Origin: Gammaproteobacteria bacterium
Lineage (GTDB): Bacteria > Pseudomonadota > Gammaproteobacteria > GCA-001735895
NCBI GenBank assembly: GCA_029862005.1
Contig: JAOTYD010000006.1
Span: 69,758-133,757, forward strand
Direction: 5' to 3'
DNA length: 64,000 nucleotides
The position numbers and the translations under genes were made by a program. Numbering within the stretch: position 1 is the stretch's first letter; every line of letters begins with the position of its first letter. The notes beneath the pieces were generated by a model. That model was given only the letters and a program-made list of their open reading frames with translations. It ran no database searches and was not told where the DNA came from. Below, piece after piece: positions 28,829 to 48,426 of the stretch.

Positions 28829-28865
28829 GCAAGAGTTTTTTGCGGTAACCAGCAGGGCAGGCAAG

Positions 28866-29090
28866 CTAATTGCAGCCGCATCCACCGCCTGTTGCTATGC
28901 CCGCGCCCCTTGCGCCCTCACGAGAATCATAAACATGATGTATATAGCTTGCCGATACCGGATCTCGGTTGAAGCTCATGATGGGGTCTGCGAGATTGGC
29001 GCGTTCGTAGGGCTTGACCCAGGGCTCGATCGCACAACCCCCCAGAATAAAGACACTACTAATTAATGCAAATGCGATTTTCTTTTGCAT
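28866..29090 (-). CDS. DUF4266-like small lipoprotein (C-terminal GGGCGCN)
   Basis: 74 aa with lipobox LGGC and an unusual Cys/Gly C-terminal tail. Confidence 0.55.
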   Translation of the reverse strand: MQKKIAFALISSVFILGGCAIEPWVKPYERANLADPIMSFNRDPVSASYIHHVYDSREGARGAGIATGGGCGCN

Positions 29091-29094
29091 CTTT

Positions 29095-29607
29095 TTACTC
29101 GCGCACCAGTTTTTTCACCATCTTGCGATACTTCTCTTCATCGCCCGGCTTGTAACCCTTATGCAGATAGCGCACGTTGCCATCACGGTCGAGGACAACC
29201 GTGGTCGGCATCGCGATCACATTGTATTTCTTACTGACCAGGTTGTTGTTATCCAGCAATACCGGAAAATCAACCGGGAAGTTCTTGAGGAATCCCCGCG
29301 CTTTCTTGACGTCCTCTTCGACATTAACGCCGAGCACGGTAAATCCGAGCGGTTCATACTTATTATGCAGGTTGTTCAGCAAAGGCATTTCTTCTCGGCA
29401 GGGGCCGCACCAGGACGCCCAGAAATTAATCAGGACCACGTTACCCGTCAATTCGCTGAGTTTGAGGTTTTTACCGGTAAGCGACTTTAACGTGAAATTC
29501 GGCGCCGGACCCTTTAACGAGGCCGCGTGCGAGAGATTTAATCCTGCAAACGATAAAAAACACAGCAGTAACAAGCTGATTCCGGTTCGCGATAACATGC
29601 TGTTCAT
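29095..29607 (-). CDS. TlpA-like periplasmic thioredoxin (redoxin family)
   Basis: Signal peptide plus WASWCGPC. Strong RBS AGGAGA. Confidence 0.88.
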   Translation of the reverse strand: MNSMLSRTGISLLLLCFLSFAGLNLSHAASLKGPAPNFTLKSLTGKNLKLSELTGNVVLINFWASWCGPCREEMPLLNNLHNKYEPLGFTVLGVNVEEDVKKARGFLKNFPVDFPVLLDNNNLVSKKYNVIAMPTTVVLDRDGNVRYLHKGYKPGDEEKYRKMVKKLVRE

Positions 29608-29619
29608 ATCTAATCTCCT

Positions 29620-30273
29620 TTAGAAAAATAAGTTAAATGCCACTGTTAGTTCAATATTGTGGGTCGTTTCCTCGCTGCCGAAGAGGTCCTGCTCGAAGAT
29701 CAAGTCTCGCATTTCAATGTCGAGGCTGAAGCCGTCGGCAAACAAGGTGCGATGCCCTACTGCATAAGCGATGGTAAATCGATCATCGCCCGCAAATTCC
29801 GTGTTACCCACACCCGCAGACAGATAAAGCACAGTATTGAATGTAGTTGAATCGGTTAAAAATGCCTCCCCGGGGAACAGGTTGAATCCAAGGGAAACGA
29901 TGTAGTACTCGACTTCCCGCTCCTCATTGGACAACAGGGGGGCACCGCCACTCAGAATCTCGAAGCTGGTCTTTCCGGAGTCGCCGAGGCCGTAGGAAGC
30001 CTGCACGAAAAAATCTTCAGAAACGTTATAACCAAGCTTGATACCTTTCACGAGATCGGTATCAAAATCCTCGAGCGCCAGGTAACCTACGTAAACAGCG
30101 ATTTCAAAATCGTCTGAATCGATCTGGGATTCATCGAACTCGATACGCTCGATCTGAGGCTCGATCAGACTAGATTGATCCTCTTCATCACTCTGCGCAG
30201 CAACCTGGGTCACCGGCATCATTGCGATCAACCAAGCACTCGCTAGAAAAATACTGCGAAACCGAATTTCCAC
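29620..30273 (-). CDS. outer-membrane beta-barrel (OmpA-like / porin-family barrel domain) protein
   Basis: GTG start with signal peptide (MEIRFRSIFLASAWLIAMMPVTQVAA); amphipathic beta strands ending in ...AFNLFF. Confidence 0.6.
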   Translation of the reverse strand: MEIRFRSIFLASAWLIAMMPVTQVAAQSDEEDQSSLIEPQIERIEFDESQIDSDDFEIAVYVGYLALEDFDTDLVKGIKLGYNVSEDFFVQASYGLGDSGKTSFEILSGGAPLLSNEEREVEYYIVSLGFNLFPGEAFLTDSTTFNTVLYLSAGVGNTEFAGDDRFTIAYAVGHRTLFADGFSLDIEMRDLIFEQDLFGSEETTHNIELTVAFNLFF

Positions 30274-31118
30274 TCGTTTACTACCTCGCTGTTGTCACTG
30301 GTGCCGGATGAAAAAATTACATACTCGTTAGCCTCGAATCGAAACAGAAAACTGCGGCTGACATAGCGTTGCAATCCCAGACCAAATTGCGCAAAGCTAT
30401 TTTTATCGTCTCTTGCTGAAATCAGGATAACACTGGGATCAACCTCAATCTCACCCAATCCAAGAGTGAGATAAGGCGAGTACTTAAAATCCGGAAACGG
30501 CTGCATTACCAGATTTCCCTTGTAGAATGTACTACTCGATTTATCGCCTACTGACTTCCCAAAATGAAACTCACCCGTCAGGTTCTCGGAAAACGAATAT
30601 CCGGTAAACAGAGTAAACACCGGAGCCGATTCAAATTCACCGCCGGTATATCCCAGGATCCACTTGCGCTGGGTAAAATCTTCCAGATCGGACTCGACAA
30701 CCCTGAACTTTTCGCCGGTGAGTAGAAGTGTTTCCCGCATCTGATCACGACTCGCCCACCCGGTCTTGCCTGTGCTGGTTTCGATTCTGAACCAGTCGGT
30801 TTTGCGTCTGATAACACTGACCTCGGTGCCTCGATCAACCACGTAAAAAATCGGGTAGCCTGCGCCTGGGCCGGTATGCAGCTCGATAAAAGGATCAGCG
30901 ATTTTAACCTTGTAATAAACCTTTCCTTCCGCATCAATATTTTTCTCAGGCGCGACTTCACTCTCAGCTGTCCTTTTCGATGCTCCCTCTTCCATTACGG
31001 TAGGTGCTTTTTGTGCCACCAGGATATCTGCGTCGATCGATTGCGACTGTGACGGTCTGGAAGCGACAAATAGCAAAAGAAACAGGCTGGGCAAAAGTAT
31101 CCCCTTGAGACGTTTCAA
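30243..31118 (-). CDS. secreted SH3b-domain protein fused to an outer-membrane beta-barrel domain
   Basis: TTG start with signal peptide. Bacterial SH3-like segment (YYKVKIADPFIELHTGPGAGYPIFYVVDRGTEVSV...WFRIE...GWASRDQM) followed by a barrel ending ...GFAVFF. Confidence 0.6.
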   Translation of the reverse strand: MKRLKGILLPSLFLLLFVASRPSQSQSIDADILVAQKAPTVMEEGASKRTAESEVAPEKNIDAEGKVYYKVKIADPFIELHTGPGAGYPIFYVVDRGTEVSVIRRKTDWFRIETSTGKTGWASRDQMRETLLLTGEKFRVVESDLEDFTQRKWILGYTGGEFESAPVFTLFTGYSFSENLTGEFHFGKSVGDKSSSTFYKGNLVMQPFPDFKYSPYLTLGLGEIEVDPSVILISARDDKNSFAQFGLGLQRYVSRSFLFRFEANEYVIFSSGTSDNSEVVNEWKFGFAVFF

Positions 31119-31149: not shown

Positions 31150-33975
31150 CTAGTTTTGTGGCGCCGCCGGGTCAAAAGGATCATTAAAGTTCTGGGCGCC
31201 TAAATCTATCCACTCTGAGATTAGCTTTAATTCGGCACCTGTCAACATAGTCGTATGATCGACACTGCCCACCGGCAATGCGCGCCCGGCGTCCAGCTCG
31301 GTTCCGGTCATCTTTTCAATGAAAAAGCTGCTGCGGGCACCAGCCGAAGTCATGATCGGAGCGATCGCAGCTGCCGGGTCGGGAATTGTACCGCCGATGC
31401 CGTCGGGCACAGTAAACTGCTCGAGCATACCCCCCGCATTGATGAACTGGCCCTGCCTGGTGTTAAACATTTGTTGATAAGACCTGAAACGATCGTTCGG
31501 GTCCTGGTTGGGATCGGTGGTCAAATCGAGCTGCCCATAGGGTAGGCGTGTACCGTTGTTAGTGGTGTGACAGCTAATACAGGTATCGTCACCGACGCCA
31601 TCGGCCACCGCCACTGACACCAGTGGCGTATTGGTCGGGTCGTTGTTTGGTGGATTGACCGGATCCATCGGCGTAATGGCGTCAACAGCGCCGCGATTAA
31701 GCTGGAAAATCGCGTGAATATGGGGTGGATAATGGATTGCCACACGGCAATTGTAGAGCCAGTTGGGAGCGCAAAAGGTATTAGTCGGCCTCAACATGCC
31801 GGGGCTCAGATCGGCATAAAGATAATCGATATCCGGGTCTGGAGTGCTTATGCCGGGATCGGTCCAGTAATCTCGGTATATCAGGTCAGCGCTGAGCTTC
31901 GGTTGATTGGCGACCGCAAGGCTATCGAAACGTACCTCCGCCATGGTTTGCCCGGGAGTACCCATGTAAGGACTAGCTGGCATCGAGCCTGGAATCAAAG
32001 TATTGACGAATATCCCACCAGCCGGCAGACCGCTATTGATCGATGGCGCCTCGCCATCGCTGCGCGCATGAATTTCGGGCGGACTACCGCCATTGTTGAC
32101 GTCATGACAACCGACGCAGGTTAGCATATCTCCCGGTTGCACCTGGAACCAGTTCTCATGCGACGGGCCAATCCTGCGACCTTCACCATCGAGCACCTCG
32201 ACCGCTAACGGGACATAGGCCGGAACTTTGACCTTGACCGAACCGTCGGGTTCGACCGGCGCGTAGCCGACGATCTCGCGCATACCCCGATTACGTTGCG
32301 GTCCAAACGCATTGCCATCAAGGTCCGGTGGGTTGACCAGCGTCGGGTCATCGGGATCGGGTATTCCGACCGACTTTACGAAACGCACGAAACGGGCGGG
32401 ACGATCGACTGCGGCGGAATTCACCGGATCGGCAAAATCCTGTACCGAGGTAATGCCGAGGCCAGCGGGCGCGCATTCGGTAAAGAAACAACCGTTAAAC
32501 GCGGGATCGCTCAAATCGTAAACGCTTTTGATATTGACCACGCCAACGACTTCGGTCTCCCAGCCAGGATCAAGCTCACCGAGCAGGCTCTTGTCGAAGA
32601 TAACCGGCGCCCGGGTTCTGTTCTCGAGCGCAATGACGTCGGTGATAACCCTGCCCGCTTCCGCCAACACGATGGGTTTCTGGGTATCGACGTCCATATC
32701 GTAAATCCAGATCGAGTAAGAGGGCGACCTTTCCACGGCCGCTGGATCATTCACATATTCATCAAGACAGGGCCTTATTACACCATTGACGTCCACCTGG
32801 CAGGTGGATTTACTGACCAGCATGCGATTCGATCCATCCCATAACGGGTAAACCGTGGCATAGCGGCCGTTGGCTGAGATCGAACCATCGTTGGTGACAT
32901 TGGAGACGGTGGCATCACGCTGCGCCGGACCGGGCATGCCCGCCAGTGACCAGAGCGGCTTATTGATATCCACAAAGCGATCGACGCTGATAACCTCAAC
33001 ATTGCCGCCGTCGAAGGTTCCGTCAAACGGCTTGGTGATTACCATCAAGTCACCGTTTTCCATTTCGCGAAAATTGGTAAAGTGGATTTCTGCGCCGCCG
33101 GTGCCGGTATTGTGACTTTGCGATCCATATAGAATCTGCAAATCGCTGCCGTCCGGATTGACGGTGTATAAATTGATTTCGTCATTGCCGCCGGCATTGT
33201 CCCAACGACTGAATACTATTTTTCCACCCTTGAAACTGGTAAATACCTGCGGGTAAAGATCGTGGCTCTGGTTGAAGGAAATCTGCTTGATTTCGGTGCC
33301 GTCGGCATTCATGACGTGCAGCACCAAAGCCTGAACACCCTCGTCTTCGTCGAGTGCGGAAAATCTCGGCTTGCCTTCGTTGATCAGCATTTCGCGAGAC
33401 TGGCGCTGACGATTCGAGGAAAATACGATACGGCCATCGGGCAGGTAGCTGGGGAAAAGATCATCACCCTCCTCGGCAATCAGAGCGGTGGAGATAACTC
33501 GACGAAGTTGACTCGTGGTTAAATCGTATTCGTAAACATTCCAGCTGGGGAACGGGGGATTGTTCGGGTCGGGGTCGAACAGGCGCAGTGAAAAAACCAG
33601 CTTGGTGCCATCGTGGCTGGCGCTCAAGCCCTTGACGTCGCCGATACCGGTGGTAACGGAGCTCGTGATATTAATCTCGTTGTCGTTACTCCGCAGATAA
33701 ACATCGCCGCCGGAACTGAACAGCCTCGGCTCGCGCACATCGACCTGAACCTCGTCGCCCATGTCGTCTACCGGAATCGGACGCTTGACGTAAGCAATCG
33801 GGATTTCGATGATGCCGGGATCGATTCCTTCGCCTGAGTCGGATCCGGGATCACATGCGCTCAGGGCGACGACTGCGGTGCATATTACAGCTAATCCTAA
33901 CCAGTGAAACTGGAATTCCATCAACTGCCTGGATCTCGTCAGAATGCGTGTATATAAGGCTGTCGTATGTTTCAT
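31150..33975 (-). CDS. lipoprotein with TolB-like PD40 beta-propeller and a C-terminal di-heme c-type cytochrome-like region
   Basis: Lipobox VALSAC. PD40-like repeats (DGTKLVFS, DGRIVFSSNR, KIVFSRWDNAGG). Two CxxCH modules: CVGCHDVNNGG at 32104-32118 and CISCHTTNNGT at 31567-31581. RBS AAGGA. Confidence 0.7.
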   Translation of the reverse strand: MKHTTALYTRILTRSRQLMEFQFHWLGLAVICTAVVALSACDPGSDSGEGIDPGIIEIPIAYVKRPIPVDDMGDEVQVDVREPRLFSSGGDVYLRSNDNEINITSSVTTGIGDVKGLSASHDGTKLVFSLRLFDPDPNNPPFPSWNVYEYDLTTSQLRRVISTALIAEEGDDLFPSYLPDGRIVFSSNRQRQSREMLINEGKPRFSALDEDEGVQALVLHVMNADGTEIKQISFNQSHDLYPQVFTSFKGGKIVFSRWDNAGGNDEINLYTVNPDGSDLQILYGSQSHNTGTGGAEIHFTNFREMENGDLMVITKPFDGTFDGGNVEVISVDRFVDINKPLWSLAGMPGPAQRDATVSNVTNDGSISANGRYATVYPLWDGSNRMLVSKSTCQVDVNGVIRPCLDEYVNDPAAVERSPSYSIWIYDMDVDTQKPIVLAEAGRVITDVIALENRTRAPVIFDKSLLGELDPGWETEVVGVVNIKSVYDLSDPAFNGCFFTECAPAGLGITSVQDFADPVNSAAVDRPARFVRFVKSVGIPDPDDPTLVNPPDLDGNAFGPQRNRGMREIVGYAPVEPDGSVKVKVPAYVPLAVEVLDGEGRRIGPSHENWFQVQPGDMLTCVGCHDVNNGGSPPEIHARSDGEAPSINSGLPAGGIFVNTLIPGSMPASPYMGTPGQTMAEVRFDSLAVANQPKLSADLIYRDYWTDPGISTPDPDIDYLYADLSPGMLRPTNTFCAPNWLYNCRVAIHYPPHIHAIFQLNRGAVDAITPMDPVNPPNNDPTNTPLVSVAVADGVGDDTCISCHTTNNGTRLPYGQLDLTTDPNQDPNDRFRSYQQMFNTRQGQFINAGGMLEQFTVPDGIGGTIPDPAAAIAPIMTSAGARSSFFIEKMTGTELDAGRALPVGSVDHTTMLTGAELKLISEWIDLGAQNFNDPFDPAAPQN

Positions 33976-34321: not shown

Positions 34322-35635
34322 ATGGGGATACTGATGGGAAAGAACAACAAAATATCGCTGCCGTTGTTAATCATGGTGGCACTGACAAGCCAGCCGCTCT
34401 GGGCCGATGCCCAGGATAGAGCGCAGGCCAAAAGAATTCATGATCGGCTCGTTGGCGTTACCGCTACTAACGCGACGATAGACGCCATGGAAGCACTGCT
34501 GATCAGTGATCCTACCGGTAAAACCGCCGCTGAATACGCGATCGACACCGCGCAAAATCCCAATGCACGATTCTTCTACAACGTAACCCTGAAGAATTTC
34601 GCCGCGCCCTGGACCAACGAAGAGCAGACGGTATTCACCCCGCTAAACGATTATTCGGCGACCGTGATCGGCCTGATACGCGATGGCGGCGATTTCAGGC
34701 AAATATTGCACGGCGACATCATCTATCGCGGTGATCCGGGCCTCGGCATCGCGGCTTACTCGAATAGCAACAACAACCACTATGAACAACTGGAAGCGCT
34801 TGGTCCCACTACTGGTGACCTCGCCAACCCGAATATCCTCGAGGGTAGCGTAACCCAGCCGGGCATAACCCAGAGCTCGGTGACAGGCCTGGCCAGTGGT
34901 GCCACCGCCGGTGTGATGACCACGCGCGCGGGCGCAATGGCGTTTTTCTCCGCAGGCACCAACCGCGCCATGTTCCGCTTCACGCTAATGAATCACCTGT
35001 GCACCGATCTCGAACCGCTCAAGGATGTCTCGCGCTCCCCCGACAAGGTTCGCCGCGATGTATCGCGCAGCCCAGGCGGCGATAGCCGTCTCTACATGAA
35101 TGGCTGTGTCGGCTGCCACGCCGGCATGGACGGCATGGCGGGCGCGTTCGCCTTCTACGAGTGGGATAGTGCCGCCGGCCGTATGCTGTACCAGGACATC
35201 GGCAGCCCGCTTTTCGACCCCGCCACCGGCGTATCGCTCAAGCACAACATTAACGGGAATAACTTCGAGTACGGTCACATCACCGAGGATGACAGCTGGA
35301 TCAACTACTGGCGCAACGGTCCCAACTCGAAGCTCGGACTCCGGCCCGCCGATGACGGCCCGAATGCTACCGGTTGGGGACCGCTCATCAATCCCGATGC
35401 CAATGGCAATGAAACCGGTAACGGGGCGAAATCTCTTGGCATCGAAATGTCCAATAGTAAAGCCTTCGCCCAGTGCCAGGTAGACAAGGCATTCAAGTCG
35501 ATCTGCCTGCGTGATCCCAATAATTTCGCCGCGGACCGCAGCGCACGCGACGGATTTGTTTCCAACTTGGTCGGCAGCGGATACGACATGCGCGAAGTCT
35601 TCACCGACGTCGCCGCATACTGCAAAGGGAGTTGA
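34322..35635 (+). CDS. secreted mono-heme c-type cytochrome-like protein
   Basis: Signal peptide; one CxxCH (CVGCH at 35105-35119); SGAT motif at 34895-34906. RBS AAGGA. Confidence 0.62.
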   Translation: MGILMGKNNKISLPLLIMVALTSQPLWADAQDRAQAKRIHDRLVGVTATNATIDAMEALLISDPTGKTAAEYAIDTAQNPNARFFYNVTLKNFAAPWTNEEQTVFTPLNDYSATVIGLIRDGGDFRQILHGDIIYRGDPGLGIAAYSNSNNNHYEQLEALGPTTGDLANPNILEGSVTQPGITQSSVTGLASGATAGVMTTRAGAMAFFSAGTNRAMFRFTLMNHLCTDLEPLKDVSRSPDKVRRDVSRSPGGDSRLYMNGCVGCHAGMDGMAGAFAFYEWDSAAGRMLYQDIGSPLFDPATGVSLKHNINGNNFEYGHITEDDSWINYWRNGPNSKLGLRPADDGPNATGWGPLINPDANGNETGNGAKSLGIEMSNSKAFAQCQVDKAFKSICLRDPNNFAADRSARDGFVSNLVGSGYDMREVFTDVAAYCKGS

Positions 35636-35637
35636 AT

Positions 35638-38304
35638 ATGAATAAAAATCACCCTTTTATTAAGATCATTTCACTCCTTGCACTGGGCGCGATGATGGCG
35701 GCCTGTGACAGTGGCGGCGTTGGCACCACGGCTAACCAGAACCTGGGTAACACGGCTAACAATTTCGCCTACACCGGTCCGGCCGCGCGCGACATCGCCG
35801 TCAGTAATTTCCAGTACTACCTATGGCGGAACGTGACCGACGTAACCCGCTGCGGCGGCTGTCATAACTCAGAAGCCAGCGCGCCGGTTACCCCGTTATT
35901 CTTCGATACCTCCAATGTTAACGTAGCTTACGACGCGACTGTGGCCAGGGATCCGTCACTTTTACCCGCGAATCTACCGACGATGAATCCGTTGAACGCG
36001 GTATTTGTCGACAAGCTCAACAATAATCACTTTTGCTGGGAGACCAATCCCGCGATCTGCGCCACGCTGATAGCTGGTTGGATCGACGACTGGAAAAATG
36101 CGGCCAATGGCGGCGCTGGGGCGCGCCAGATCAATCTGACTGCACCGGCCAGCATCAGGGACCCGGGCGACTCCAAGTCGTTTCCCGCCACCGCGACCAC
36201 TGTCGGCACCAACGGCACCAGTTTCGCCGATACCGTGTACGAGCTGCTGGTTGGCAGCAACCCGGTAATTGCCGACAATAACTGCCAGAACTGCCACAAT
36301 GAAGTTGGCCCAATATTGCCGCAGGCGCCGTTTTTTGCCCACACCGATGTCGATGTAGCTTACGAGGCCGCCAAGTCAAAAATGGACATCGATACACCCG
36401 CTAATTCGCGATTGGCCGTGCGCCTGTTCGAGCAGCACAACTGCTGGAGCACCTGTGGCCCCGACGAAACGCTGATGGTGCAGAGGATCACGGATTTTGC
36501 CGATGGCATTGCGGTTTCGTCGATCGACCCCACCCTGGTCACCAGTAAGGCACTGACCCTGGGCGAAGGTATTATCGCCTCCGGTGGCAATCGCCATGAA
36601 ACCGATCAATTCGCCATCTGGGAATTCAAAACCGGCACTGGTCTGACCGCTTACGACACCAGCGGTGTCGGCGCCTCGATCAACCTGTCACTGATCGGCA
36701 GCGTCAACTGGGTTGGCGGCTATGGTCTCGAATTCACTGGTGGACGGGCACAGGCCGATACTATCAGCAGCGATAAAATCTTTACCTATCTTCAGGATAC
36801 CGGTGAATATGCCATCGAAGCCTGGGTCATCCCGGCCAACGTCACCCAGGAAGACGCCAATATCGTCAGTTACTCCGGTGGTGACCTCGCGCGCAATTTC
36901 ACGCTGGGCCAGGATATGTACAACTACGAGTCTTACAACCGGATTGACTCGGTTATTCCTGCACCGAACGGCGAACCCGTTATGTCTACCGGGGAAGACG
37001 ACGAGGAGCTGGCGCAAGCCAGCTTGCAGCATGTCGTGATCAACTATGATCCCCTCGATCGCCTTGGCAATGGCGCTGGCCGCAGCATTTACGTCAACGG
37101 CCAGCTGGTCAATAACCTGACTGACACCGCGGCGGGATTACCGATCACAAACGTCTGGGACGATACTTTCGCATTCATCCTCGGCAACGAAATCTCAGGA
37201 AACCGCCCGTGGATGGGACAGGTCAAAATGGTTGCGCTACACAACAGGGCACTAGCCCAACCAGAGATTCAGCAGAACTTCGACCTCGGCGTCGGCCAGA
37301 AATTCCTGCTGCTATTCTATGTCGGTCATCACCTCGGTGAAATCGGCAACCCCAACAGCTTTATCATGTTCGAGGTGGCCCAGTTCGACAGCTACAGTTA
37401 CCTGTTCAACAAGCCCACGTTCGTCACCCTTGATGGCAGTGCCCCGAGTTCAGACATTGATATTAAAGGCCTGCGTATCGGCATCAACGGCAAAGAGGCG
37501 CTCGCAGGCCAGGCTTATGCCAACCTCGACACCAGCGTCATCGCCGCCACCTACGACCCGGCGACCGGCCAGGAACTGTCTTCTAAGGGTACTATTATTT
37601 CGCTCGAAAAAGGCTCCGACAGCGACGAGTTCTTCCTGACTTTCGAGGATTTCAACGGCTTCACCAAGGCCTTTAGTGATATCGTTCCGACAGTAGCTGC
37701 CGATCCGGGCGATCCGGTCAACCCGCTTGAGGCCGACATCGGCGTGCGCACCTTCCAGGAGATCAATGTGACCATCGCCGAGATTACCGGCGTGCCTGTC
37801 ACCAACACGGCAGTCGCAACGGTTTACAACGACTACATCCAGCAGTTGCCGACGATAGAGGCGATCGAAGCCTTCCTGCCCTCGCACCAGATGGCGATCG
37901 CGCAACTCGCGTTGACTTCCTGTAGCGAACTGGTCGAAGGCAACGGTTCGATACCCAGGGCGACCTACTTCCCTGGATTCAATTTCGGCACCAACGCGCA
38001 AACCGCTTTCGATACCCAGGCCGAGCGAGATGCGATTATCGATCCGCTGCTAAGCGCGGCGATGAACGTCGACCAGGCCACGCCTGCGAATAATCTCATC
38101 ACGCAACCAGTGGAACTGGAAGTCGCTGACTTGCTGAGTTCTCCGGCCGCGCAGGATCTTGATCCCGCACTCACCGGCGACTCGTATGACAGTCTGATAA
38201 CAGAAATGTTATCCGATCTCGTAAACACGCCAGCACGCACCGAGCAAATCGTGAAAGCCGTCTGCGCCGTCGCCACTGGTGGCGCGGTAATGCTAGTACA
38301 ATAG
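35638..38304 (+). CDS. lipoprotein with two cytochrome-c-like CxxCH modules and a LamG/concanavalin-like domain
   Basis: Lipobox LGAMMAAC. CGGCH at 35851-35865 and CQNCH at 36283-36297 lie in an internally duplicated module (...P..FF...V.VAY). Jellyroll/LamG-like middle region. RBS AGGGAG. Confidence 0.68.
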   Translation: MNKNHPFIKIISLLALGAMMAACDSGGVGTTANQNLGNTANNFAYTGPAARDIAVSNFQYYLWRNVTDVTRCGGCHNSEASAPVTPLFFDTSNVNVAYDATVARDPSLLPANLPTMNPLNAVFVDKLNNNHFCWETNPAICATLIAGWIDDWKNAANGGAGARQINLTAPASIRDPGDSKSFPATATTVGTNGTSFADTVYELLVGSNPVIADNNCQNCHNEVGPILPQAPFFAHTDVDVAYEAAKSKMDIDTPANSRLAVRLFEQHNCWSTCGPDETLMVQRITDFADGIAVSSIDPTLVTSKALTLGEGIIASGGNRHETDQFAIWEFKTGTGLTAYDTSGVGASINLSLIGSVNWVGGYGLEFTGGRAQADTISSDKIFTYLQDTGEYAIEAWVIPANVTQEDANIVSYSGGDLARNFTLGQDMYNYESYNRIDSVIPAPNGEPVMSTGEDDEELAQASLQHVVINYDPLDRLGNGAGRSIYVNGQLVNNLTDTAAGLPITNVWDDTFAFILGNEISGNRPWMGQVKMVALHNRALAQPEIQQNFDLGVGQKFLLLFYVGHHLGEIGNPNSFIMFEVAQFDSYSYLFNKPTFVTLDGSAPSSDIDIKGLRIGINGKEALAGQAYANLDTSVIAATYDPATGQELSSKGTIISLEKGSDSDEFFLTFEDFNGFTKAFSDIVPTVAADPGDPVNPLEADIGVRTFQEINVTIAEITGVPVTNTAVATVYNDYIQQLPTIEAIEAFLPSHQMAIAQLALTSCSELVEGNGSIPRATYFPGFNFGTNAQTAFDTQAERDAIIDPLLSAAMNVDQATPANNLITQPVELEVADLLSSPAAQDLDPALTGDSYDSLITEMLSDLVNTPARTEQIVKAVCAVATGGAVMLVQ

Positions 38305-38316
38305 GATTCGAATATC

Positions 38317-39945
38317 ATGGCCAGATTTAAAAAGAACCAGTACATCCCCCCCCAGGCACCGTTGTTGTACGAAGACCACGGACGTCCTGTCACCCGACGG
38401 CAGTTTATTCGCCAGGGCATGATGACCGGCTCGGCTACCGTGCTTTCGGCCGGCGCCTTCGGTATGTTTGCGAATCCGAACATGGCGCGTGCAGCGGTCG
38501 CACCCGATCTTGACGCCCTCGCGACCGATATCGGCTGTATCCTGGGCGGTGTCGGCGCCGGTCAAAGCGTACCCTTTATCGCCTTTGACCTGGCCGGGGG
38601 TGCTAATTTTGCTGGCTCCAACGTGCTGGTCGGCCAGGGCGGCGGACAGATGGATCTGCTGTCCACGGCCGGTTACAGCAAACTCGGTCTGCCGGGCGAT
38701 ATGCTGCCCGGACAGGACAGCACCGGCGTAACCCTGTTAAATACCAGCGCCAACAACGATTTCACCAATAATGATCTCAATCTCGTATTTCATGCGGATA
38801 GCCCGATGCTGTTCGGCATTCTCGAGAAAGCCAGCACGGCAATCGGCAATGTCGATGGCGCCGTGATCCCGGCACGCTCGGACAACGACACCGGCAACAA
38901 TCCGCATAACCCGCTCTACCCGCTGGCGATGGCCGGTGCGCGCGGCAGTGTGGTCGACCTGATTGGTTCGCGCAGTAGCGTCTCGGGCGGCAACTCGATG
39001 GCGCCGGCGATGTATATCGATCCCAATTTCCAACCCACCAAGGTAGATCGTCCCAGCGATGTCACCGGGCTTGTGGATGTCGGCGATCTGACCACAATCC
39101 TGGGTCCGGACGATGTCACCGCGGTGATGGAATCCATTACCCGGATAACCCACAAAAAACTCAAGCTGGGTACCATCGACACCGGGCTGACCAACGACGA
39201 CGTGGTCAAGGACCTGGTACGCTGTGGCTACCTCAAGGCCTCCGACATCGCCGACCGCTTTGCCGGCGTCGAAGTCGATCCGACACTCGATACCAACATT
39301 GCTGGTCCGATCTTTTCGGCAACCGAACTGGCCAACGATGGTGAGTTCAGAAAAACCGCCTCGGTCATGAAAATGGTCATGAATGGCTATGCCGCAGGCG
39401 GCTGCATCACCATGGGTGGCTATGATTACCACACCGGTGACCGGCGCGTCGGTGAAAATCGCGATTTGCGGGCCGGGCGCTGCATCGGCGCCTGCCTCGA
39501 ATATGCGCGCCTGCTGGCGTCTCCGCTAATGATTTACGTGTTTAGCGACGGTTCGGTGGCCAGTAACGGTAACACCGACGATACCGCGTCTGCCGGTGCT
39601 GGTGAGAACCTGGTACTCGGTGGCGGCGGCAAGGGCGAATGGACTGGCGATAATTCCTCGACCGCCTGTTCCTTTTTCCTGGTGTTCGACCCGACAGCCG
39701 CACCTACGCTGGTCGGCACACGCCAGATCGGACGTATGAACGCAGGCGCTTCCGTGGTCACCTCGGCCACGCCCGCGGCAAATAACGTCAACCTGCTGGT
39801 TAATATGGTCATACTTAACTATATGGCCGTGAACGGGCAGGTGTCGCCCGGAAATACAACCGCCTTCACCAATATTTTTCCGAATCACGGCCTGGGTAAT
39901 CAGGCAAACCTGGACAGCTTTATTTCGTTTGGTTCTTTGGTGTAA
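38317..39945 (+). CDS. Tat-signal secreted protein of unknown function (possibly DUF1501 / sulfatase-superfamily-like)
   Basis: Twin-arginine motif TRRQFIRQG plus an h-region. 542 aa. Tightly coupled to the preceding heme lipoprotein. Confidence 0.6.
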   Translation: MARFKKNQYIPPQAPLLYEDHGRPVTRRQFIRQGMMTGSATVLSAGAFGMFANPNMARAAVAPDLDALATDIGCILGGVGAGQSVPFIAFDLAGGANFAGSNVLVGQGGGQMDLLSTAGYSKLGLPGDMLPGQDSTGVTLLNTSANNDFTNNDLNLVFHADSPMLFGILEKASTAIGNVDGAVIPARSDNDTGNNPHNPLYPLAMAGARGSVVDLIGSRSSVSGGNSMAPAMYIDPNFQPTKVDRPSDVTGLVDVGDLTTILGPDDVTAVMESITRITHKKLKLGTIDTGLTNDDVVKDLVRCGYLKASDIADRFAGVEVDPTLDTNIAGPIFSATELANDGEFRKTASVMKMVMNGYAAGGCITMGGYDYHTGDRRVGENRDLRAGRCIGACLEYARLLASPLMIYVFSDGSVASNGNTDDTASAGAGENLVLGGGGKGEWTGDNSSTACSFFLVFDPTAAPTLVGTRQIGRMNAGASVVTSATPAANNVNLLVNMVILNYMAVNGQVSPGNTTAFTNIFPNHGLGNQANLDSFISFGSLV

Positions 39946-39969: not shown

Positions 39970-40989
39970 ATGTCTGAATCTCTGGCAGGCAAAGCCAATG
40001 GTTTGCCTCGGCAGACATTAGCCTCGTCTATCTTTACGATAATTCTCCTGTGTAGCCAAACGACGGCGCACGCCGAATGGCATCAACAGCAGCGCGACAT
40101 CATGGGAACCCGGGTTTCAGTTGAACTCTGGCATGATGAAGCCACAACCGCATCCAGATGCAGTGAAAAGGTTTTCACCGAAATGCGTCGCATCGAAGCA
40201 AGGATGAGCTCATATAAAAGCGACAGTGAGCTTTCATTTATCAATGACAACGCCGCGATGAACGCGGTCAAAATCAGTGATGAAATGATGCATCTGATTA
40301 AAAGATCGATTCACTTCTCCGAGGTTTCGAAAGGCGCGTTCGATATCACTTATGCCAGCGTCGGCTATGCCTACGACTACCGTAAACGCCAGCAGCCCAG
40401 CAATGAATCTATCTCGGAGAAACTGCCAGCTATCGACTATCATCATATTATGATTTCCGGAGATGAGATTCAGTTTGGCAACGATGCGGTACGTATCAAC
40501 CTCGGCGGCATCGCCAAGGGTTACGCGGTCGATCGTGCTGCCGATATTATCGGCCAGTGTGGCATCACCGAGGCCATGGTAAGTGCGGGCGGTGACAGCC
40601 GTATCATCGGAGATCGCAAGGGTCGCCCCTGGGTCATGGGTATCAAGCATCCTCGCGACCCTGAGGGCATTGCGATACGTCTGCCGCTCAGCGAAAGCGC
40701 GATTTCAACGTCGGGTGATTACGAGCGGTTTTTTATTGACGACGGCAAACGCGTGCATCACATTATCAATCCCGCCACCGGCCGCTCCGCGACGGCCAGC
40801 TGGAGTGCAACCGTCGTCGGCCCCGATGCCCTGACAACTGACGCTTTATCTACTACTATTTTTATTCTGGGTGCAGTCGACGGAATTACCCTGATTGAAA
40901 CCCTGGAAGGAATCGACGCCATCATTATCGATAGCGATGGAAAAGTGCATTACTCCTCTGGCTTTGAAGTACCTGAAGTCAAACAATAA
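39970..40989 (+). CDS. apbE: FAD:protein FMN transferase (ApbE family)
   Basis: Lipoprotein-like signal; the ApbE fold signature is spread along the protein. Confidence 0.85.
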   Translation: MSESLAGKANGLPRQTLASSIFTIILLCSQTTAHAEWHQQQRDIMGTRVSVELWHDEATTASRCSEKVFTEMRRIEARMSSYKSDSELSFINDNAAMNAVKISDEMMHLIKRSIHFSEVSKGAFDITYASVGYAYDYRKRQQPSNESISEKLPAIDYHHIMISGDEIQFGNDAVRINLGGIAKGYAVDRAADIIGQCGITEAMVSAGGDSRIIGDRKGRPWVMGIKHPRDPEGIAIRLPLSESAISTSGDYERFFIDDGKRVHHIINPATGRSATASWSATVVGPDALTTDALSTTIFILGAVDGITLIETLEGIDAIIIDSDGKVHYSSGFEVPEVKQ

Positions 40990-41011: not shown

Positions 41012-41620
41012 ATGAAATATTTCAGCCTTATCATCCTTTTACTTGTTTACCTCGCCGTTCCCGTTGTCGGGCAGGAAACTTCATCAGAGTTGATCGAAGG
41101 CGAGATCGAAGTGCCACAAGCGGAAGAATCGGACGAGGCCAATGCAGAATCGATCGATGAAGATGAGTCCCTGGAAGGCTCGCTCGACGCGGATATCGAA
41201 GCCCTGAAAAAAGAAGTACTATCGCTTAACCGGGACCTGTTTATCCTCGAAGAGGACTTACTGTTTCCTTCGAACACCCAGTTCAGCGTCTTCCTGTCGA
41301 TGAACGCCGGTGCACTGTTCAGTCTCGATTCGATCCAGCTGAAAATTGACGACAAGAACATCGCCAATCACCTGTACACCGAGCGCGAACTCGCGGCCCT
41401 CAAGCGCGGTGGCGTGCAGCGTCTCTACATCGGCAACCTGCCGACAGGTGAGCACGAAATTATCCTGATTTTTACCGGGGTTGGACCCAAGGGTCGGGAC
41501 TACCGCCTCGGTGAAACAATCGTCATAGAAAAGACAACCGATCCCCAGTTCGTGGAATTCATGATCGCTGATGATACCGGTAAGGAACAACCTCAATTCG
41601 ATGTGCGTGTCTGGGAATAA
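41012..41620 (+). CDS. secreted acidic coiled-coil protein
   Basis: Signal peptide, a D/E-rich stretch, a coiled coil (ALKKEVLSLNRDLFILEEDL), then a beta-rich C-domain. Confidence 0.5.
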   Translation: MKYFSLIILLLVYLAVPVVGQETSSELIEGEIEVPQAEESDEANAESIDEDESLEGSLDADIEALKKEVLSLNRDLFILEEDLLFPSNTQFSVFLSMNAGALFSLDSIQLKIDDKNIANHLYTERELAALKRGGVQRLYIGNLPTGEHEIILIFTGVGPKGRDYRLGETIVIEKTTDPQFVEFMIADDTGKEQPQFDVRVWE

Positions 41621-43487
41621 GCGCCATCAAAAATTCCTGAGGCACGTATCGCGCGGCATTCGTCGCTCATTCTACGGGCTACTGTTAAGCTGTGCCTGCA
41701 GCCCGGTCATCGCGGTTCAAACGGTCGAACATAGAGTCGAGGATCTCGACTATGGTCGCGCACTCTACCAGTTTTTCCAGGATAGCAGGCTGGCGGCAAT
41801 TACCCAACTGATGATAGCCGCGGAAAGACCTCGCAGCCGTAGCCAGGTCAATGAGTCCAACCTGTTGCTCGCAGATCTATACTACGGGTACGGGCTATAC
41901 GAAGAATCGCGCGACCTGTTTGCCCAGCTCCTGACCGCCGAGGTTTCGGACTCGATTCAAAACAGGATCTGGTTCAACCTGGCACGGCTTCGCTACGAGC
42001 AGGGTTACTATGAACCAGCGCTTGACCTGCTATCACGCATTAACGACCAGCTACCGGGTGGTGTGGAGTCAGAAAAGAGATACCTGCTGACCAACCTTTA
42101 TCTTGACAATCGCCAGTACGACGAGGCCGCCGATCTCAGCAACCAGATCAACCCGAAATCGATCTGGAAGATCTACGCGCGCTACAACCTGGCGGTAACG
42201 CTCATCGAAGACGATCGCTACGAGTCCGGTAAGACACTGCTCGAAAAGATCGGCCAGATGGAAGCCGGTACACCCGAATTGATTGCCCTGCGCGATCGCG
42301 CAAATCTTTCGCTGGGGCTCAAACAGCTGCGCATGGAACTGGCCGAGCCGGCACTGGAAAGCCTTTCCAGGATCAGGCTCGAGGGACCCCTGAGCAACGA
42401 GGCGCTACTTGCATCCGGCTGGGCCTGGTATCGACTCGGCAAGTTCGACAAGGCAATGATCCCCTGGCAGGTGCTGCTGCAGCGCAACGCAGTAGATGCA
42501 GCGACACAGGAAGCGATCCTGGCGATTCCCGCCAATTACGCCAAGTCAGGCCAGGACGGGCTGGCAGTACGCCATTATGAAATTGCCGCGACACAGTTTG
42601 ATTTGCAGCTGCAGTTGCTCGATAACGCGATCAAGTCGATCGAAAGTGATGAATTAATTGCAGCGCTGCGGGAAAACGCCATTCTCTACGATCGCAGCAG
42701 CCTGCAACGCTTACCACCGAGTTCCGATGTTACCCCGCAATTACACCTTCTGCTGGCTTCGACAGAATTTCAACGCGAAATTACACGCTACCAGGAATTG
42801 CTCGATATTCGTAACTCGCTTCGATTCTGGGGCAATAACTTCCCTGCTCTGGAGCTGATGCTGTCAGAGCGTCGCCGTGGTTTTGAAAACAAGCTGCCGT
42901 TACTGCAGCAATCCAGCAGTTTCGATCAGCTCGATCTACTGCGTGAACAGAGGGACCAGTTTGCCGGCCGGGTCAGTGCGATCGAGGCGGCACAAGACTT
43001 CGAGGCGCTCGCAAATCCGGATGAGCAGGAACAGCTGTCAAGGCTGCAACGCGTCTCGACGTCTATTGACATGGTCGCACCGGAACGTAATACGGCCTAC
43101 CAGCAGGATATGTTTCGCCTGTTATCCGGATTGCTGCGGTACGAGTTGGAGACCGACTTTCCGGTAAGATTCTGGAAAACAAAGAAACAGCTGATACTGC
43201 TGGATCGTGCACTGGCTGAATCCGAGCAGCGGGTTAATGACTTACGCAGGATCACGGAGCGTACCGACCTCGAGTTCGGTCTGTTCGAGAAACGCATCGG
43301 CGGCCAGACAGAGCGCATCAGTCAATTGCGTAGCAAGGTCTCAACCCTGTTGTCGTCACAGGAGCGACTCATCAATCAAATGGCAATTGACGCCATTCGT
43401 CAACAGCAGCAGCATATCGTGCAGTTACGCCTTAATGCCCGTTTTGAACTGGCCAAAATTTTCGACCGGATGGCGGCAGAACAATGA
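41601..43487 (+). CDS. TPR-repeat protein with C-terminal coiled coil
   Basis: Signal-like N-terminus (…RRSFYGLLLSCACSPVIA), multiple TPR-like helices, long coiled-coil tail. Start is uncertain: ATG 41601 overlaps the upstream gene by 20 nt. Confidence 0.6.
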   Translation: MCVSGNKRHQKFLRHVSRGIRRSFYGLLLSCACSPVIAVQTVEHRVEDLDYGRALYQFFQDSRLAAITQLMIAAERPRSRSQVNESNLLLADLYYGYGLYEESRDLFAQLLTAEVSDSIQNRIWFNLARLRYEQGYYEPALDLLSRINDQLPGGVESEKRYLLTNLYLDNRQYDEAADLSNQINPKSIWKIYARYNLAVTLIEDDRYESGKTLLEKIGQMEAGTPELIALRDRANLSLGLKQLRMELAEPALESLSRIRLEGPLSNEALLASGWAWYRLGKFDKAMIPWQVLLQRNAVDAATQEAILAIPANYAKSGQDGLAVRHYEIAATQFDLQLQLLDNAIKSIESDELIAALRENAILYDRSSLQRLPPSSDVTPQLHLLLASTEFQREITRYQELLDIRNSLRFWGNNFPALELMLSERRRGFENKLPLLQQSSSFDQLDLLREQRDQFAGRVSAIEAAQDFEALANPDEQEQLSRLQRVSTSIDMVAPERNTAYQQDMFRLLSGLLRYELETDFPVRFWKTKKQLILLDRALAESEQRVNDLRRITERTDLEFGLFEKRIGGQTERISQLRSKVSTLLSSQERLINQMAIDAIRQQQQHIVQLRLNARFELAKIFDRMAAEQ

Positions 43488-46309
43488 CTAAAAGCCTGTC
43501 CCATCGCCTGCCCATCATGATGCTCACCGCGACACTTGTTGCCTGTGGTTCAGGTGGGTCCGATTTCGGACCGACGATCGGTGATCTCGAGGAACTGCCG
43601 CCCCTGCTGGAGACCGCGGAACTGGAGCCGCAGGCGAGTTTCAAAGTCGATCGTCAGCAAGTCATAGACAGCTTTCGGGCCCTGGTTGAGATAACGGCCG
43701 ACGGTGGCGGTACCGGAGATGAATTACGACGCCTGGCTGATCTCGAACTGGAATCCAGCCTCGATAACCGAATATCCGATGACGAGACGACCCAGCAGCA
43801 GGGCATTGGCGAAGCGGCACGGGCAATCGGGATTTACGAAGCCTATCTTAAAAAATACCCCGAACGCCCGAGTAACGATATGGTGCTTTACCAATTGTCT
43901 CGTGCCTATGCCCTCGAAGCTGAATCTGAAAAATCCATAGCCGCGCTGGATCGCATCGCGCGCGAGTACCCGGATTCACAATACATGGACGAGGTTCAGT
44001 TCCGGCGTGGCGAGAACCTGTTTGTGCAGCGGGAATACCAGGCTGCAGAGCAGGCTTATGGCAAGGTCGTAAACGATCACCCGGATTCGCTGTTTTTCGA
44101 AAAAGCGCTCTATAAATATGGCTGGACGCAGTTCAAACAGAGTCGCTATCGCGATGCCCTAGCCAGCTACACGCGCTTGCTCGACGTCAATTTTGAACAG
44201 GATAAGATCTGGGAAATCGGTTTCAATCCAGGGCTGCCTAGAGCAGATCGGGAGCTACTCGAAGATGTCGTGCGCGTCGTCTCACTCAGCTTTTCCTACC
44301 AGGACGAAAAATACTATATTGCACAATACTTCAATGAAACCGGAAAGCGAAACTACGAGCCCCTGCTTTACCTGCGGCTGGGCGAACTTTACCTGGACAA
44401 AAAGCGCATCATCGACGGTTCGGATCTGTTCCTGGCCTACACCAAGCAATACCCCTACTCATCGCATACCCCGCGTTTTCACCAGCGTGCAATTGAAACC
44501 TTCCAGCAAGCCGGTTATTCGGACCTGGTGCTAAAAGAAAAGATCGCCTTCGTTAACCGCTACGACGTAAACGGCGAATACTGGGCGTTGCAGGAACCCG
44601 AAACCCAGCGAACCCTGACCAAGACCCTGGTCTTGCACATGACCGAGCTGGCTACCCATTTTCACGCACTGGCCCGGGCCAGCAAGAAAATGAAAGACTA
44701 CGGGATTTCGGCCGACTGGTATCGCCGCTTTCTAAAATCCTTTCCGAATGATCCGGGCGCACCGCGGATGAATTTTCTGCTCGCCGAAAACCTCTACGAT
44801 GCAGGTCAATATCCGCAGGCAATCGACGAGTACCAGAAAACAGCATATAACTATGCGCCACACAAGGATAGTGCCGAGGCAGGCTACGCAGCGCTGATCG
44901 CGTTTGATGCCCTGTTCAAGACGACCAATGCAAGTGACATTCCCGCATTGCGGCGCAAGCGCATTAAATCGGCGGTCCGCTTTACCACGGCTTATCCCGA
45001 TGATCCCCGATTGTCGGTGGTTGAACTGCAGACCGCACAACAGTTCTTCAAGTGGAAGAATTATCCTGACGCGATCGCGTCGGCAAACCGCCTGATTGAA
45101 AACCAGCGCGTTGACAAAACCACCAAGCAAACCGCGTGGACAATACTGTCCGATGCGCAGTTTTCAACGGCGGACTACGCCGCGGCTGAAAAATCCTATC
45201 TCACGCTGCTGACTTTTATGCCGAAACAGGACCAGAAGAGAAAGGCAGTGCGCGAACAGGTCGCCGCGAGTATTTACAAACAGGGGGAAATCGCTCGTGA
45301 GGTGGGGAATCACCTGCTCGCAGCACAAACCTTCACCCGACTTGGCCAGGTGATCCCAGAATCTCCAAAACGCAAGGTCGCCGACTACGATGCGGCAACC
45401 GCGTACATACAACTCGAAGACTGGTCGACCACGATCGCGCAACTGGAAGCCTTTCGCAAGAGATACCCGAGTGATAAAAAGTTCACGGATGGTGTCACCG
45501 AGAAACTCGCGCTGGCCTACAGCAAAAATGGAAACCAGTCCAAGGCGGCGCGGGAAATACTCGCGTTATCGAATCTTCCCGGCACGGCTGAGCGCAAGCG
45601 GGACCTGATGTGGCGTGCTGCCGAACTGTATCAGCAGGACGGCCAGCCCGAACAGGCGATTGCAATCTACAAGCAGTACGTCAAGGTTTATCCCTACCCG
45701 CTGGAACGCTCGATCGAACTGCGTCACAAGATCGCCGAATCATATCGCGCCAAGAACGATACCAAGAACCGTAATTACTGGCTCAACGAAATTATCAGGG
45801 CGGATGCAGCTGGAAAATCGGAACGCAGTGCACGTAGCCGGTACCTGGCCGCTACCGCCAGCCTGGAATTGATCCAGCCACTGCATCGAACCTATAGCAA
45901 AGCCAGGCTGACAATACCGCTTAAAACCAGCCTGGGCAAAAAGAAAAAACTGATGCAACAAGCGATTGACGCCTACAGCAAGGCAATGAAATACCAGGTG
46001 CAGGAAGTAACCACCGAAGCCACGTTCCAGATTGCCGAAATCTACCATGATTTCGCAAGATCCCTGATGGATTCACAAAGACCCAAGGGTCTTGATGAAG
46101 AACAACTCGAAGAGTACGAACTGTTGCTGGAAGAACAGGCCTTTCCGTTCGAGGAGAAGGCAATCGATATACATCTGGCGAACTTCAAGCGCATCCCCGC
46201 CGGCACTTTCGATGAACCCACGAAAAAGAGTTTACAGGTCCTGGGTGAAATGATGCCGTTTCGTTACGCCCGGGCTGAGAGCACTGATAATTATGTTGAA
46301 ATTCAATAA
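43484..46309 (+). CDS. large TPR-repeat lipoprotein
   Basis: Lipobox LVACGS; about 940 aa of TPR-like repeats. ATGA overlap with the upstream gene. Confidence 0.72.
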   Translation: MTKSLSHRLPIMMLTATLVACGSGGSDFGPTIGDLEELPPLLETAELEPQASFKVDRQQVIDSFRALVEITADGGGTGDELRRLADLELESSLDNRISDDETTQQQGIGEAARAIGIYEAYLKKYPERPSNDMVLYQLSRAYALEAESEKSIAALDRIAREYPDSQYMDEVQFRRGENLFVQREYQAAEQAYGKVVNDHPDSLFFEKALYKYGWTQFKQSRYRDALASYTRLLDVNFEQDKIWEIGFNPGLPRADRELLEDVVRVVSLSFSYQDEKYYIAQYFNETGKRNYEPLLYLRLGELYLDKKRIIDGSDLFLAYTKQYPYSSHTPRFHQRAIETFQQAGYSDLVLKEKIAFVNRYDVNGEYWALQEPETQRTLTKTLVLHMTELATHFHALARASKKMKDYGISADWYRRFLKSFPNDPGAPRMNFLLAENLYDAGQYPQAIDEYQKTAYNYAPHKDSAEAGYAALIAFDALFKTTNASDIPALRRKRIKSAVRFTTAYPDDPRLSVVELQTAQQFFKWKNYPDAIASANRLIENQRVDKTTKQTAWTILSDAQFSTADYAAAEKSYLTLLTFMPKQDQKRKAVREQVAASIYKQGEIAREVGNHLLAAQTFTRLGQVIPESPKRKVADYDAATAYIQLEDWSTTIAQLEAFRKRYPSDKKFTDGVTEKLALAYSKNGNQSKAAREILALSNLPGTAERKRDLMWRAAELYQQDGQPEQAIAIYKQYVKVYPYPLERSIELRHKIAESYRAKNDTKNRNYWLNEIIRADAAGKSERSARSRYLAATASLELIQPLHRTYSKARLTIPLKTSLGKKKKLMQQAIDAYSKAMKYQVQEVTTEATFQIAEIYHDFARSLMDSQRPKGLDEEQLEEYELLLEEQAFPFEEKAIDIHLANFKRIPAGTFDEPTKKSLQVLGEMMPFRYARAESTDNYVEIQ

Positions 46310-46934: not shown

Positions 46935-46938
46935 ACAA

Positions 46939-47223: not shown

Positions 47224-47259
47224 TCCAGCAGTTGACCAGAGACCGCGGAGGCTCTCGCA

Positions 47260-47907: not shown

Positions 47908-47916
47908 GTACTACAA

Positions 47917-48408: not shown

Positions 48409-48426
48409 TAACAGGATGTTGATGCA

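Follow-up and report, generated by a model that had tools for sequence, protein, structure and literature searches.

What do two adjacent genes do whose products are both predicted to be exported and both carry CxxCH heme-attachment motifs? The genes lie on a stretch of 64,000 nucleotides (nt) of a gammaproteobacterial genome (assembly GCA_029862005.1, contig JAOTYD010000006.1, positions 69,758 to 133,757 of the forward strand). Hereafter, we call this whole stretch the window and count positions from its first letter. The first open reading frame (ORF), A437 (34322-35635, plus strand), encodes a putatively Sec-exported protein of 437 amino acids (aa) with one heme motif. The second, B890, ends at 38304 on the same strand and encodes a lipoprotein with two such motifs, and the third, C542 (38317-39945, plus strand), encodes a predicted twin-arginine-exported protein of an unnamed family. 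The explanation that we favor, and consider probable, is that A437 and B890 are periplasmic c-type cytochromes that would wire a thiol/flavin relay to C542, a putative exported enzyme. Judged from sequence and gene order, A437, B890 and C542 constitute a conserved, widespread and previously unnamed three-part module, and the trio lies here inside a gene cluster already known from marine bacteria, a flavin/thiol electron relay whose function is uncharacterised.

Heme motifs and domains of A437 and B890

A437 begins with a Sec-type signal peptide, read from the sequence at approximately residues 1-28 with predicted cleavage between LWA and D, and contains a single CxxCH, the CVGCH at residues 262-266 (C262, C265 and H266; 35105-35119, plus strand). 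B890, whose residues are numbered throughout for the 890-aa form, has a lipoprotein signal (...MAAC25-D) at its N-terminus and contains two motifs, CGGCH at residues 74-78 and CQNCH at residues 218-222. Its lipobox cysteine, Cys25 (35704-35706), is invariant, also among 43 diverged homologues. To this extent the results agree with an earlier annotation made from the letters of this DNA, hereafter the sequence-only reading, which had described a secreted mono-heme protein and a di-heme lipoprotein. The motif of A437 is invariant in 36 close homologues and in all 101 diverged representatives at 31-52% identity, and both motifs of B890 are invariant in 44 close homologues and in 43 at 39-54% identity; the cysteines on whose conservation that reading had made its case depend are thus retained in both families. 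In addition, exactly two CxxCH are found in 68 of the 68 full-length B homologues from the fetched loci. The numbers expected by chance from composition are 0.0013 in A437 and 0.0018 in B890, and among the ORFs of at least 150 aa in the window only A437, B890 and a divergent gene, U941, bear the motif.

Read from these motifs, A437 would bind one heme and B890 two. What is expected of c-type cytochromes is found together here: the motifs are conserved, export signals are read from the sequence, and the window also contains a gene for CcmF (18469-20439, minus strand). CcmF and the adjacent small ORFs (16282-20439, minus strand) resemble a System I cytochrome c maturation operon, and their presence is consistent with an organism that makes c-type cytochromes. 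The motifs might instead form structural disulfides or bind a metal (Zn/Fe), in exported proteins that have no redox function; the window proteins pass no Pfam cytochrome threshold, their heme assignment being a reading of the motif, and both have other conserved Cys pairs. Nevertheless, the full five-residue pattern, including the His, is invariant over hundreds of millions of years of divergence, both proteins are predicted to be exported and Ccm genes are present, cytochrome c models recur among family members, and all neighboring genes encode redox proteins. We therefore consider this alternative very improbable.

The heme motifs of B890 lie in two modules. Module 1 (residues 52-160; 35785-36111, plus strand) includes CGGCH with an invariant H133-x-C135-W136 and C143, and module 2 (residues 196-292; 36217-36507, plus strand) includes CQNCH with an invariant H269-N-C271-W and C275; the latter is the copy kept in single-module relatives. 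The two are homologous to each other (hhalign probability 99.2%, E = 1.4 × 10-19; pairwise score 83 versus 32 ± 6 for shuffles) and arose by internal duplication, as the sequence-only reading had proposed. That reading had also placed the module in A437, which proved incorrect: profile hidden Markov models (HMMs) of the B module match B890 alone in the window and never A437, so the two proteins have no common module. The B family comprises at least 5383 clusters at 90% identity. When 43 members were scanned individually against Pfam, Cytochrom_C matched 21 (best E = 1.7 × 10-5), Cytochrome_CBB3 34 and Haem_bd 14, and the modules show weak similarity to class I cytochromes c, including c555 and the heme subunit of flavocytochrome c. 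They appear to represent an undescribed c-type cytochrome domain. The hemes of B890 would be bis-His electron-transfer centers with the second His supplied by H133 and H269, and the pairs C135/C143 and C271/C275 would form disulfides.

Downstream of the heme modules, B890 contains the Laminin_G_3/concanavalin-like jelly-roll (residues 387-547; 36790-37272, plus strand) expected from the sequence-only reading. PF13385 matches it at E = 2.7 × 10-17 (63.8 bits against a cut-off of 27.6), and its Foldseek matches in the PDB are the lectin domains, likewise jelly-rolls, found in trans-sialidase and botulinum toxin Hc. Laminin_G_3 was found in 43 of 43 B homologues and a Sialidase N-terminal domain in 13 of them. 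The secondary structure predicted by AlphaFold2 (AF2) places a second beta-sandwich at approximately residues 557-672 (37300-37647, plus strand) and a C-terminal helical domain at approximately residues 705-890 (37744-38304, plus strand). Positions 527-648 of the B HMM match proteins of two distant loci (L085_g362 and L087_g290), and its positions 656-825 match two further proteins of the same loci (L085_g204 and L087_g235). The lipid anchor would hold the hemes at a membrane face, and the LamG region may be a docking domain for a glycan or a protein partner. Asp follows the lipobox Cys at position +2 in B890, its close homologues and U941 (...AACDSGG, 35704-35709, and ...SACDPGS), a residue that in lipoproteins of E. 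coli is an inner-membrane retention signal; distant B homologues have Gly at +2 (ACGGG).

The A family comprises at least 8000 clusters at 90% identity, and an exhaustive profile search collected 1301 representatives at 50% identity, 575 of them with E ≤ 10-30. Members of both families are labelled 'hypothetical' or 'LamG domain-containing' and come mostly from metagenome-assembled genomes of marine Gammaproteobacteria, and neither family carries an NCBIfam match when the window proteins are searched. Among 101 full-length A representatives, the invariant residues are G117, G212-T-N-R215, D246, R249 and C262/C265/H266; cysteines 227, 385, 395 and 434 of A437 are conserved as well. Because these representatives have no second conserved His or Met, and only K307 (100 of 101) and Y135 (97 of 101) are conserved as candidate distal ligands, the heme of A437 may be ligand-accessible or Lys/Tyr-ligated.

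When the 101 representatives were scanned individually against Pfam, PSD2/DUF1585 matched 54 (best E = 1.9 × 10-7) and PSCyt3/DUF1588 matched 47 (best E = 3.1 × 10-4), and a single member, P0331, passed the PSD2 cut-off (27.9 versus 25.8 bits). Through the alignment, the PSD2 matches of P0331, P0308 and P0381 map onto residues 365-432 of A437 (35414-35617, plus strand), a C-terminal helical domain with conserved C385, C395 and C434, and the C-terminal end of the PSCyt3 profile maps onto residues 257-283, CxxCH included. A437 is thus a remote stand-alone relative in the DUF1588-DUF1585 (PSCyt3/PSD2) superfamily. Assignment of its CxxCH region to DUF1585 was ruled out, DUF1585 corresponding to the C-terminal helices and the CxxCH falling in the DUF1588-like part. 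Profile searches of PDB sequences with the profiles A1, A2, A3 and A5 and with C542 gave nothing meaningful; the best matches of A3, to cytochrome P460, were not significant (E = 0.27). No functional account was found in the literature on DUF1585, DUF1588, DUF1592 and DUF1552.

Two short motifs of A437 were also followed through the family. The direct repeat DVSRSP-x5-DVSRSP, pointed out in the sequence-only reading, is present in A437 with copies from residue 235 onward (35024-35041) and at residues 246-251 (35057-35074), both on the plus strand. Only the second copy, inside the family signature RRDVxRxPGGDS, is kept, as DV[DST]R[SAN]P, and the first position reads D-T/V-x-x-P-D across the family; therefore this is not a conserved repeat but a lineage-specific one. 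An SGAT at residues 192-195 (34895-34906) was considered as a site at which A437 might be a substrate of ApbE. It is present in only 9 of the 36 close and 2 of the 101 distant homologues and, because it is not conserved, is rejected as such a site and is probably a chance match.

The sequence-only reading had likened the heme modules to the planctomycete-type PSCyt1 domain (PF07635). Neither A437, B890 nor the excised modules matched PSCyt1 at E ≤ 10, and B890 and its modules had no match to PSCyt2 or PSD1 at that threshold either. Within the families, PSCyt1 was found in 2 of 43 B homologues at E = 0.13 and is listed for 0 of 101 A members, PSCyt2 matched 6 and DUF1800 2 of the 101, and the generic Cytochrom_C and Cytochrome_CBB3 models outscore PSCyt1 across the B family. 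If the B890 modules were PSCyt1 all the same, the pair would be a gammaproteobacterial copy of the module of PSCyt1/PSCyt2/PSD1 and DUF1501 known from Planctomycetes-Verrucomicrobia-Chlamydiae (PVC) bacteria, and these few matches would fit, as would the parallel architecture of CxxCH domains, Laminin_G_3 and a twin-arginine partner in PVC bacteria (PMC3542564). Such a copy is unlikely, not only for the scores above but also because C542 and 40 of its homologues, tried as DUF1501/DUF1552 proteins, gave no match at E ≤ 1, and because the candidate distal ligand of the B module is the His of H-N-C-W. The PSCyt1 label is thus unsupported. The system can fairly be described as planctomycete-type heme proteins with a twin-arginine partner, and by sequence the A437 family links to a different planctomycete pair, PSCyt3/DUF1588 with PSD2/DUF1585; what is left of the planctomycete-type idea is this link and the architectural parallel to the PVC modules, and not membership in PSCyt1.

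Gene arrangement and distribution of the trio

The stop codon of A437 is TGA at 35633-35635. B890 may start at TTG 35632, which gives the longest ORF of 890 aa, or at ATG 35638, which gives 888 aa and is likelier, being favored by the N-termini of homologues (MLKNHPF...) and by an AAGGGAG Shine-Dalgarno sequence 7 nt upstream. Because these indicate the ATG, which lies 2 nt past the TGA, the two ORFs do not overlap; the stop/start overlap at 35633-35640 that had been reported arises only with the TTG. Translational coupling, claimed together with the overlap, is plausible from the tight packing of the genes. C542 begins 12 nt beyond B890, and the gene for ApbE begins 24 nt beyond C542. Between A437, B890, C542 and ApbE no terminator-like signal above chance was found, in a promoter and terminator scan that gave chance-level results. 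The layout of A437 and B890 as an operon-like pair is supported.

The locus scan, for which the query alignment contained 18 A sequences, covered 84 loci with an A homologue. B adjoins A in 83 of them, a C542 homologue lies beside A in 70, a U941 homologue is present in 74, and DUF3570, DUF4266 and the thioredoxin (Trx)-like gene are present in 58-59. Genes that are missing mostly fall where a contig ends. An apparent case of A without B (L001/L009; CP070646.1, 6891-12912) was rejected as an assembly or scaffolding artefact that imitates truncated genes: this 'chromosome'-level metagenome-assembled genome has N-runs in the U941 and B homologues, with unrelated sequence joined behind them. Among the hosts, Marinobacter, Paraglaciecola, Aliiglaciecola, Pleionea and Corallincola are represented by cultured members, and the trio also occurs beyond Gammaproteobacteria in Bdellovibrionota (including Bdellovibrionales) and Myxococcota. 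Among named organisms, the one closest to the window is the Gamma 3 endosymbiont of Olavius algarvensis, with an A protein 88% identical. Its scaffold DS021201.1 (L056) carries the same cluster with proteins 67-94% identical, indicating that the window organism is close to this lineage.

We sampled the surroundings of distant A relatives at nine loci, with HMM comparison for L085-L087 and Pfam labels and gene sizes for the others. In the LamG class (L086, L088, L089 and L092), a single B protein contains one or two heme modules, and in these four loci the trio always adjoins Trx-DUF4266-DUF3570, usually together with ApbE. The trio of L086 lies beside a complete canonical DsbD-Trx-DUF4266-DUF3570-ApbE, that of L088 beside ApbE-DUF3570-DUF4266-Trx, and L089 has the whole gene set of the window in another order. 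The minimal class, which consists of L085 (Bdellovibrionales), L087 and, judged by the order and sizes of their genes, L090 and L091, has no LamG. Two lipoproteins take the place of B in L085 and L087. One, of approximately 204-235 aa and encoded between A and C, corresponds to the C-terminal helical domain (approximately 204-252 aa over the minimal systems overall), and in the other, of approximately 290-362 aa and encoded after C, the second beta-sandwich travels with a heme module. The genes of L090 and L091 are laid out in the same way. Another locus of minimal type has ApbE and a NapH-like polyferredoxin as neighbors. The C542 homologue is present in all the distant systems sampled. Because both the LamG and the minimal classes keep A, the helical domain of B, the heme module and C, these appear to be the constant core, and LamG, the second heme module and the relay appear to be add-ons.

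The absence of LamG from the minimal class bears on another explanation, redox-assisted polymer processing, according to which LamG would bind an extracellular or outer-membrane glycan and the hemes would feed an oxidative or hydrolytic C542, by analogy with cytochrome domains that feed carbohydrate-active oxidoreductases. The similarity of LamG to the glycan-binding domains of sialidases and neurotoxins, its closest relatives, is consistent with this, as are the genes for a secretin, an S8 peptidase and a ShlB-type transporter that adjoin in some loci and the sugar or protein acceptors proposed by Kamneva et al. for the analogous PVC proteins (PMC3542564). However, LamG is dispensable, since minimal systems that lack it keep A and C along with the heme module and helical domain of B, and no conserved glycoside hydrolase, lyase or sugar transporter is found in the cluster. 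Polymer processing is, in our judgment, rather unlikely.

C542 has no Pfam, NCBIfam or PDB relative, even when family members were scanned individually. Its twin-arginine signal is TRRQFIRQG, and the RR (residues 27-28; 38395-38400) is kept in 63 of 63 homologues. Residues upstream of the RR are conserved as well, P15, H21 and P24 in PLxHxDHxRPVTRRxF (38317-38400); this n-region is unusual for a twin-arginine signal and may mark the binding of a dedicated export chaperone. The invariant Asp/His/Ser/Asn clusters of C542 are FDLAGGAN (D91), NDxxNNPHNP (190-199), GGYDYH (367-372), SDGS (410-413) and D445, which we take to resemble DUF1501 or alkaline-phosphatase-type metal sites, an assumption supported by none of the search results. 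A DUF1552 gene is presumably the partner of the planctomycete PSCyt3/PSD2 proteins; C542 itself matches no Pfam model.

Neighboring genes and the proposed relay

A437 and B890 are the center of a conserved cluster of approximately 24 kb. On the minus strand it contains a ShlB-type transporter gene, the flavinylation-associated DUF3570 (27650-28885), DUF4266 with a C-terminal GCGC (28866-29090), a Redoxin/Trx-like protein with CGPC (29095-29607), two outer-membrane beta-barrel proteins (OMP_myx_plus, and SH3_3 with OMP_b-brl; 29620-31118) found in 59 and 65 of the 84 loci, and U941 (31150-33975). On the plus strand, A437, B890 and C542 are followed by the ApbE FAD:protein FMN transferase (39970-40989; PF02424, E = 3.2 × 10-78) and then, at 41012-49910, by a small secreted protein, three TPR proteins, a 94-aa ORF, ExbB, two ExbD and a TonB-like protein, the part from the first TPR gene onward spanning 41571-49910. 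A second Redoxin/AhpC-TSA gene is found at 50451-50918. Four genes of the flavin/thiol relay, ApbE, DUF3570, the Trx-like gene and DUF4266, are thus all clustered around A437 and B890. DsbD is not adjacent to the cluster; a DsbD-like ORF lies at 57437-59887 (plus strand), approximately 7.5 kb past the TonB-like gene, and is 26% identical over 405 aa (E = 7.6 × 10-11) to the trio-adjacent DsbD of L086.

In the DUF3570 of the window, TSAS and VSAS stand where that of L086 has the canonical SGAS/SGAT, so that the acceptor Ser is kept and the Gly is replaced, and cluster-associated DUF3570 homologues have [ST][SAG]AS and [ST](G)AS at the canonical positions. U941, transcribed divergently from A437, is a hydrazine-synthase-alpha-like lipoprotein with a beta-propeller, an HZS_alpha middle domain and two CxxCH, both retained in 61 of 61 homologues. 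It is collinear with the alpha subunit of hydrazine synthase (5c2v_A) through the propeller and the middle heme and C-terminal domains. For HZS-alpha homologues outside anammox bacteria, no function is known (PMC12758564).

If A437 and B890 are the cytochromes of this cluster, reducing equivalents might pass from DsbD-type thiol chemistry to the Trx-like protein, DUF4266 and ApbE-flavinylated DUF3570, and then through the hemes of B890, A437 and U941 to C542 or its substrate. The flow may also run the opposite way. Hemes, a flavinylated DUF3570 and TonB-ExbBD could also serve the reductive release or uptake of a metal, in particular iron, at the outer membrane. Many flavinylation clusters are tied to iron assimilation, and 25 DUF3570 clusters contain the VIT1 iron transporter (PMC8238504). 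Here, too, the two outer-membrane barrels are conserved, and the TPR, ExbB, ExbD and TonB genes are conserved downstream; this set recurs with the operon in L003, L019, L022 and L024, and in L089 it is inverted or rearranged. Against metal reduction or acquisition, which we consider quite unlikely, the cluster showed no gene for a TonB-dependent receptor, a siderophore, a ferrous transporter or a Fur-type regulator, and the TonB genes are missing from many distant loci that retain the trio.

Several points weigh against a relay that runs through cytochromes A437 and B890 to C542. The hemes are assigned from the motif, A437 itself matches no Pfam family at E ≤ 10, and B890 and its excised modules match no Pfam cytochrome family at the same threshold. 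The AF2 models of both proteins have a confidence below 50 near each CxxCH, which is to be expected when the cofactor is absent but is uninformative. The DUF3570 of the window lacks the canonical [ST]GA[ST] flavinylation motifs. Flavinylation genes are not nearby in the minimal class, that is in 4 of the 9 distant contexts, and the thiol/flavin relay is therefore not obligatory for the trio. C542 as the catalytic end of the module is a guess, and the electron path, including its direction and the role of TonB-ExbBD, is one that we infer from the genes present.

As a more tentative extension, which we hold to be possible and not probable, the trio would be the terminal oxidoreductase of an undescribed envelope-spanning thiol-flavin-heme relay, leading from DsbD via the Trx-like protein, DUF4266 and FMN-DUF3570 and then via U941 and the hemes of A437 and B890 to C542, and C542 would represent a new class of twin-arginine-exported metalloenzymes, possibly far relatives of DUF1501. 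If this were true, the trio would give the first functional handle on DUF3570 flavinylation and on the planctomycete PSCyt/PSD and DUF1501/DUF1552 proteins, in the genetically tractable Marinobacter. The locus joins three uncharacterised systems: the PSCyt/PSD heme proteins with twin-arginine partners, the DUF3570/ApbE relay and the non-anammox HZS-alpha homologues. The function of the cluster is open to direct study, because genera that are cultured and tractable (Marinobacter, Paraglaciecola, Aliiglaciecola and Pleionea) carry it too. The A family, whose representatives at 50% identity number at least 1,301, and the C542 family are both without a Pfam model, and thousands of proteins now called 'hypothetical' or 'LamG domain' could be labelled as putative c-type cytochromes of a defined module.

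Comparison with known systems

The PSCyt3 (PF07627, DUF1588) and PSD2 (PF07624, DUF1585) models both match the A437 family, in the same N-to-C order as in the planctomycete proteins. In those proteins, however, the two domains are the tails of large multidomain (DUF1592-type) polypeptides, whereas A437 is a stand-alone protein of approximately 400 aa with an N-terminal helical domain of its own; A437 itself matches neither model at E ≤ 10, and its partner C542 is not detectably DUF1552. Class I c-type cytochromes (PF00034 and PF13442) resemble the B modules in the N-terminal helix followed by CxxCH and in sub-threshold matches to the B family. Unlike them, the remainder of the B module, of approximately 95 residues in total (FF/FV...AY...SR.V..HNCW...C), has no counterpart, and its probable sixth ligand is His instead of Met.

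Kamneva et al. (2012, PMC3542564) proposed an electron-transfer role for the PVC modules of DUF1501 with PSCyt1/PSCyt2/PSD1, with or without Laminin_G_3. The likeness to the present trio is a protein with cytochrome c motifs, sometimes with Laminin_G_3, beside a twin-arginine-exported protein. In contrast, the PSCyt1, PSCyt2, PSD1 and DUF1501 models match neither B890 nor C542, and the hosts of the trio are Gammaproteobacteria, Bdellovibrionota and Myxococcota, not PVC bacteria.

Meheust et al. (2021, PMC8238504) showed experimentally that ApbE flavinylates DUF3570, and described the cluster of ApbE, DUF3570, Trx-like protein and DUF4266, with or without DsbD, as an extracytosolic electron-transfer system of uncharacterised function. 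Its four core genes surround A437 and B890, and its canonical version with DsbD lies beside the trio of L086, although in the window the motif is relaxed to [ST][SAG]AS and DsbD is not adjacent. The main text of that report does not mention the trio of heme, LamG and twin-arginine proteins or the HZS-alpha-like protein, and in the searched portion of its supplement the only entry found is an unrelated Laminin_G_3 of Streptococcus. The closest known systems are thus PSCyt3/PSD2 by sequence, for A only, the PVC modules by architecture, and the DUF3570 system by genomic context.

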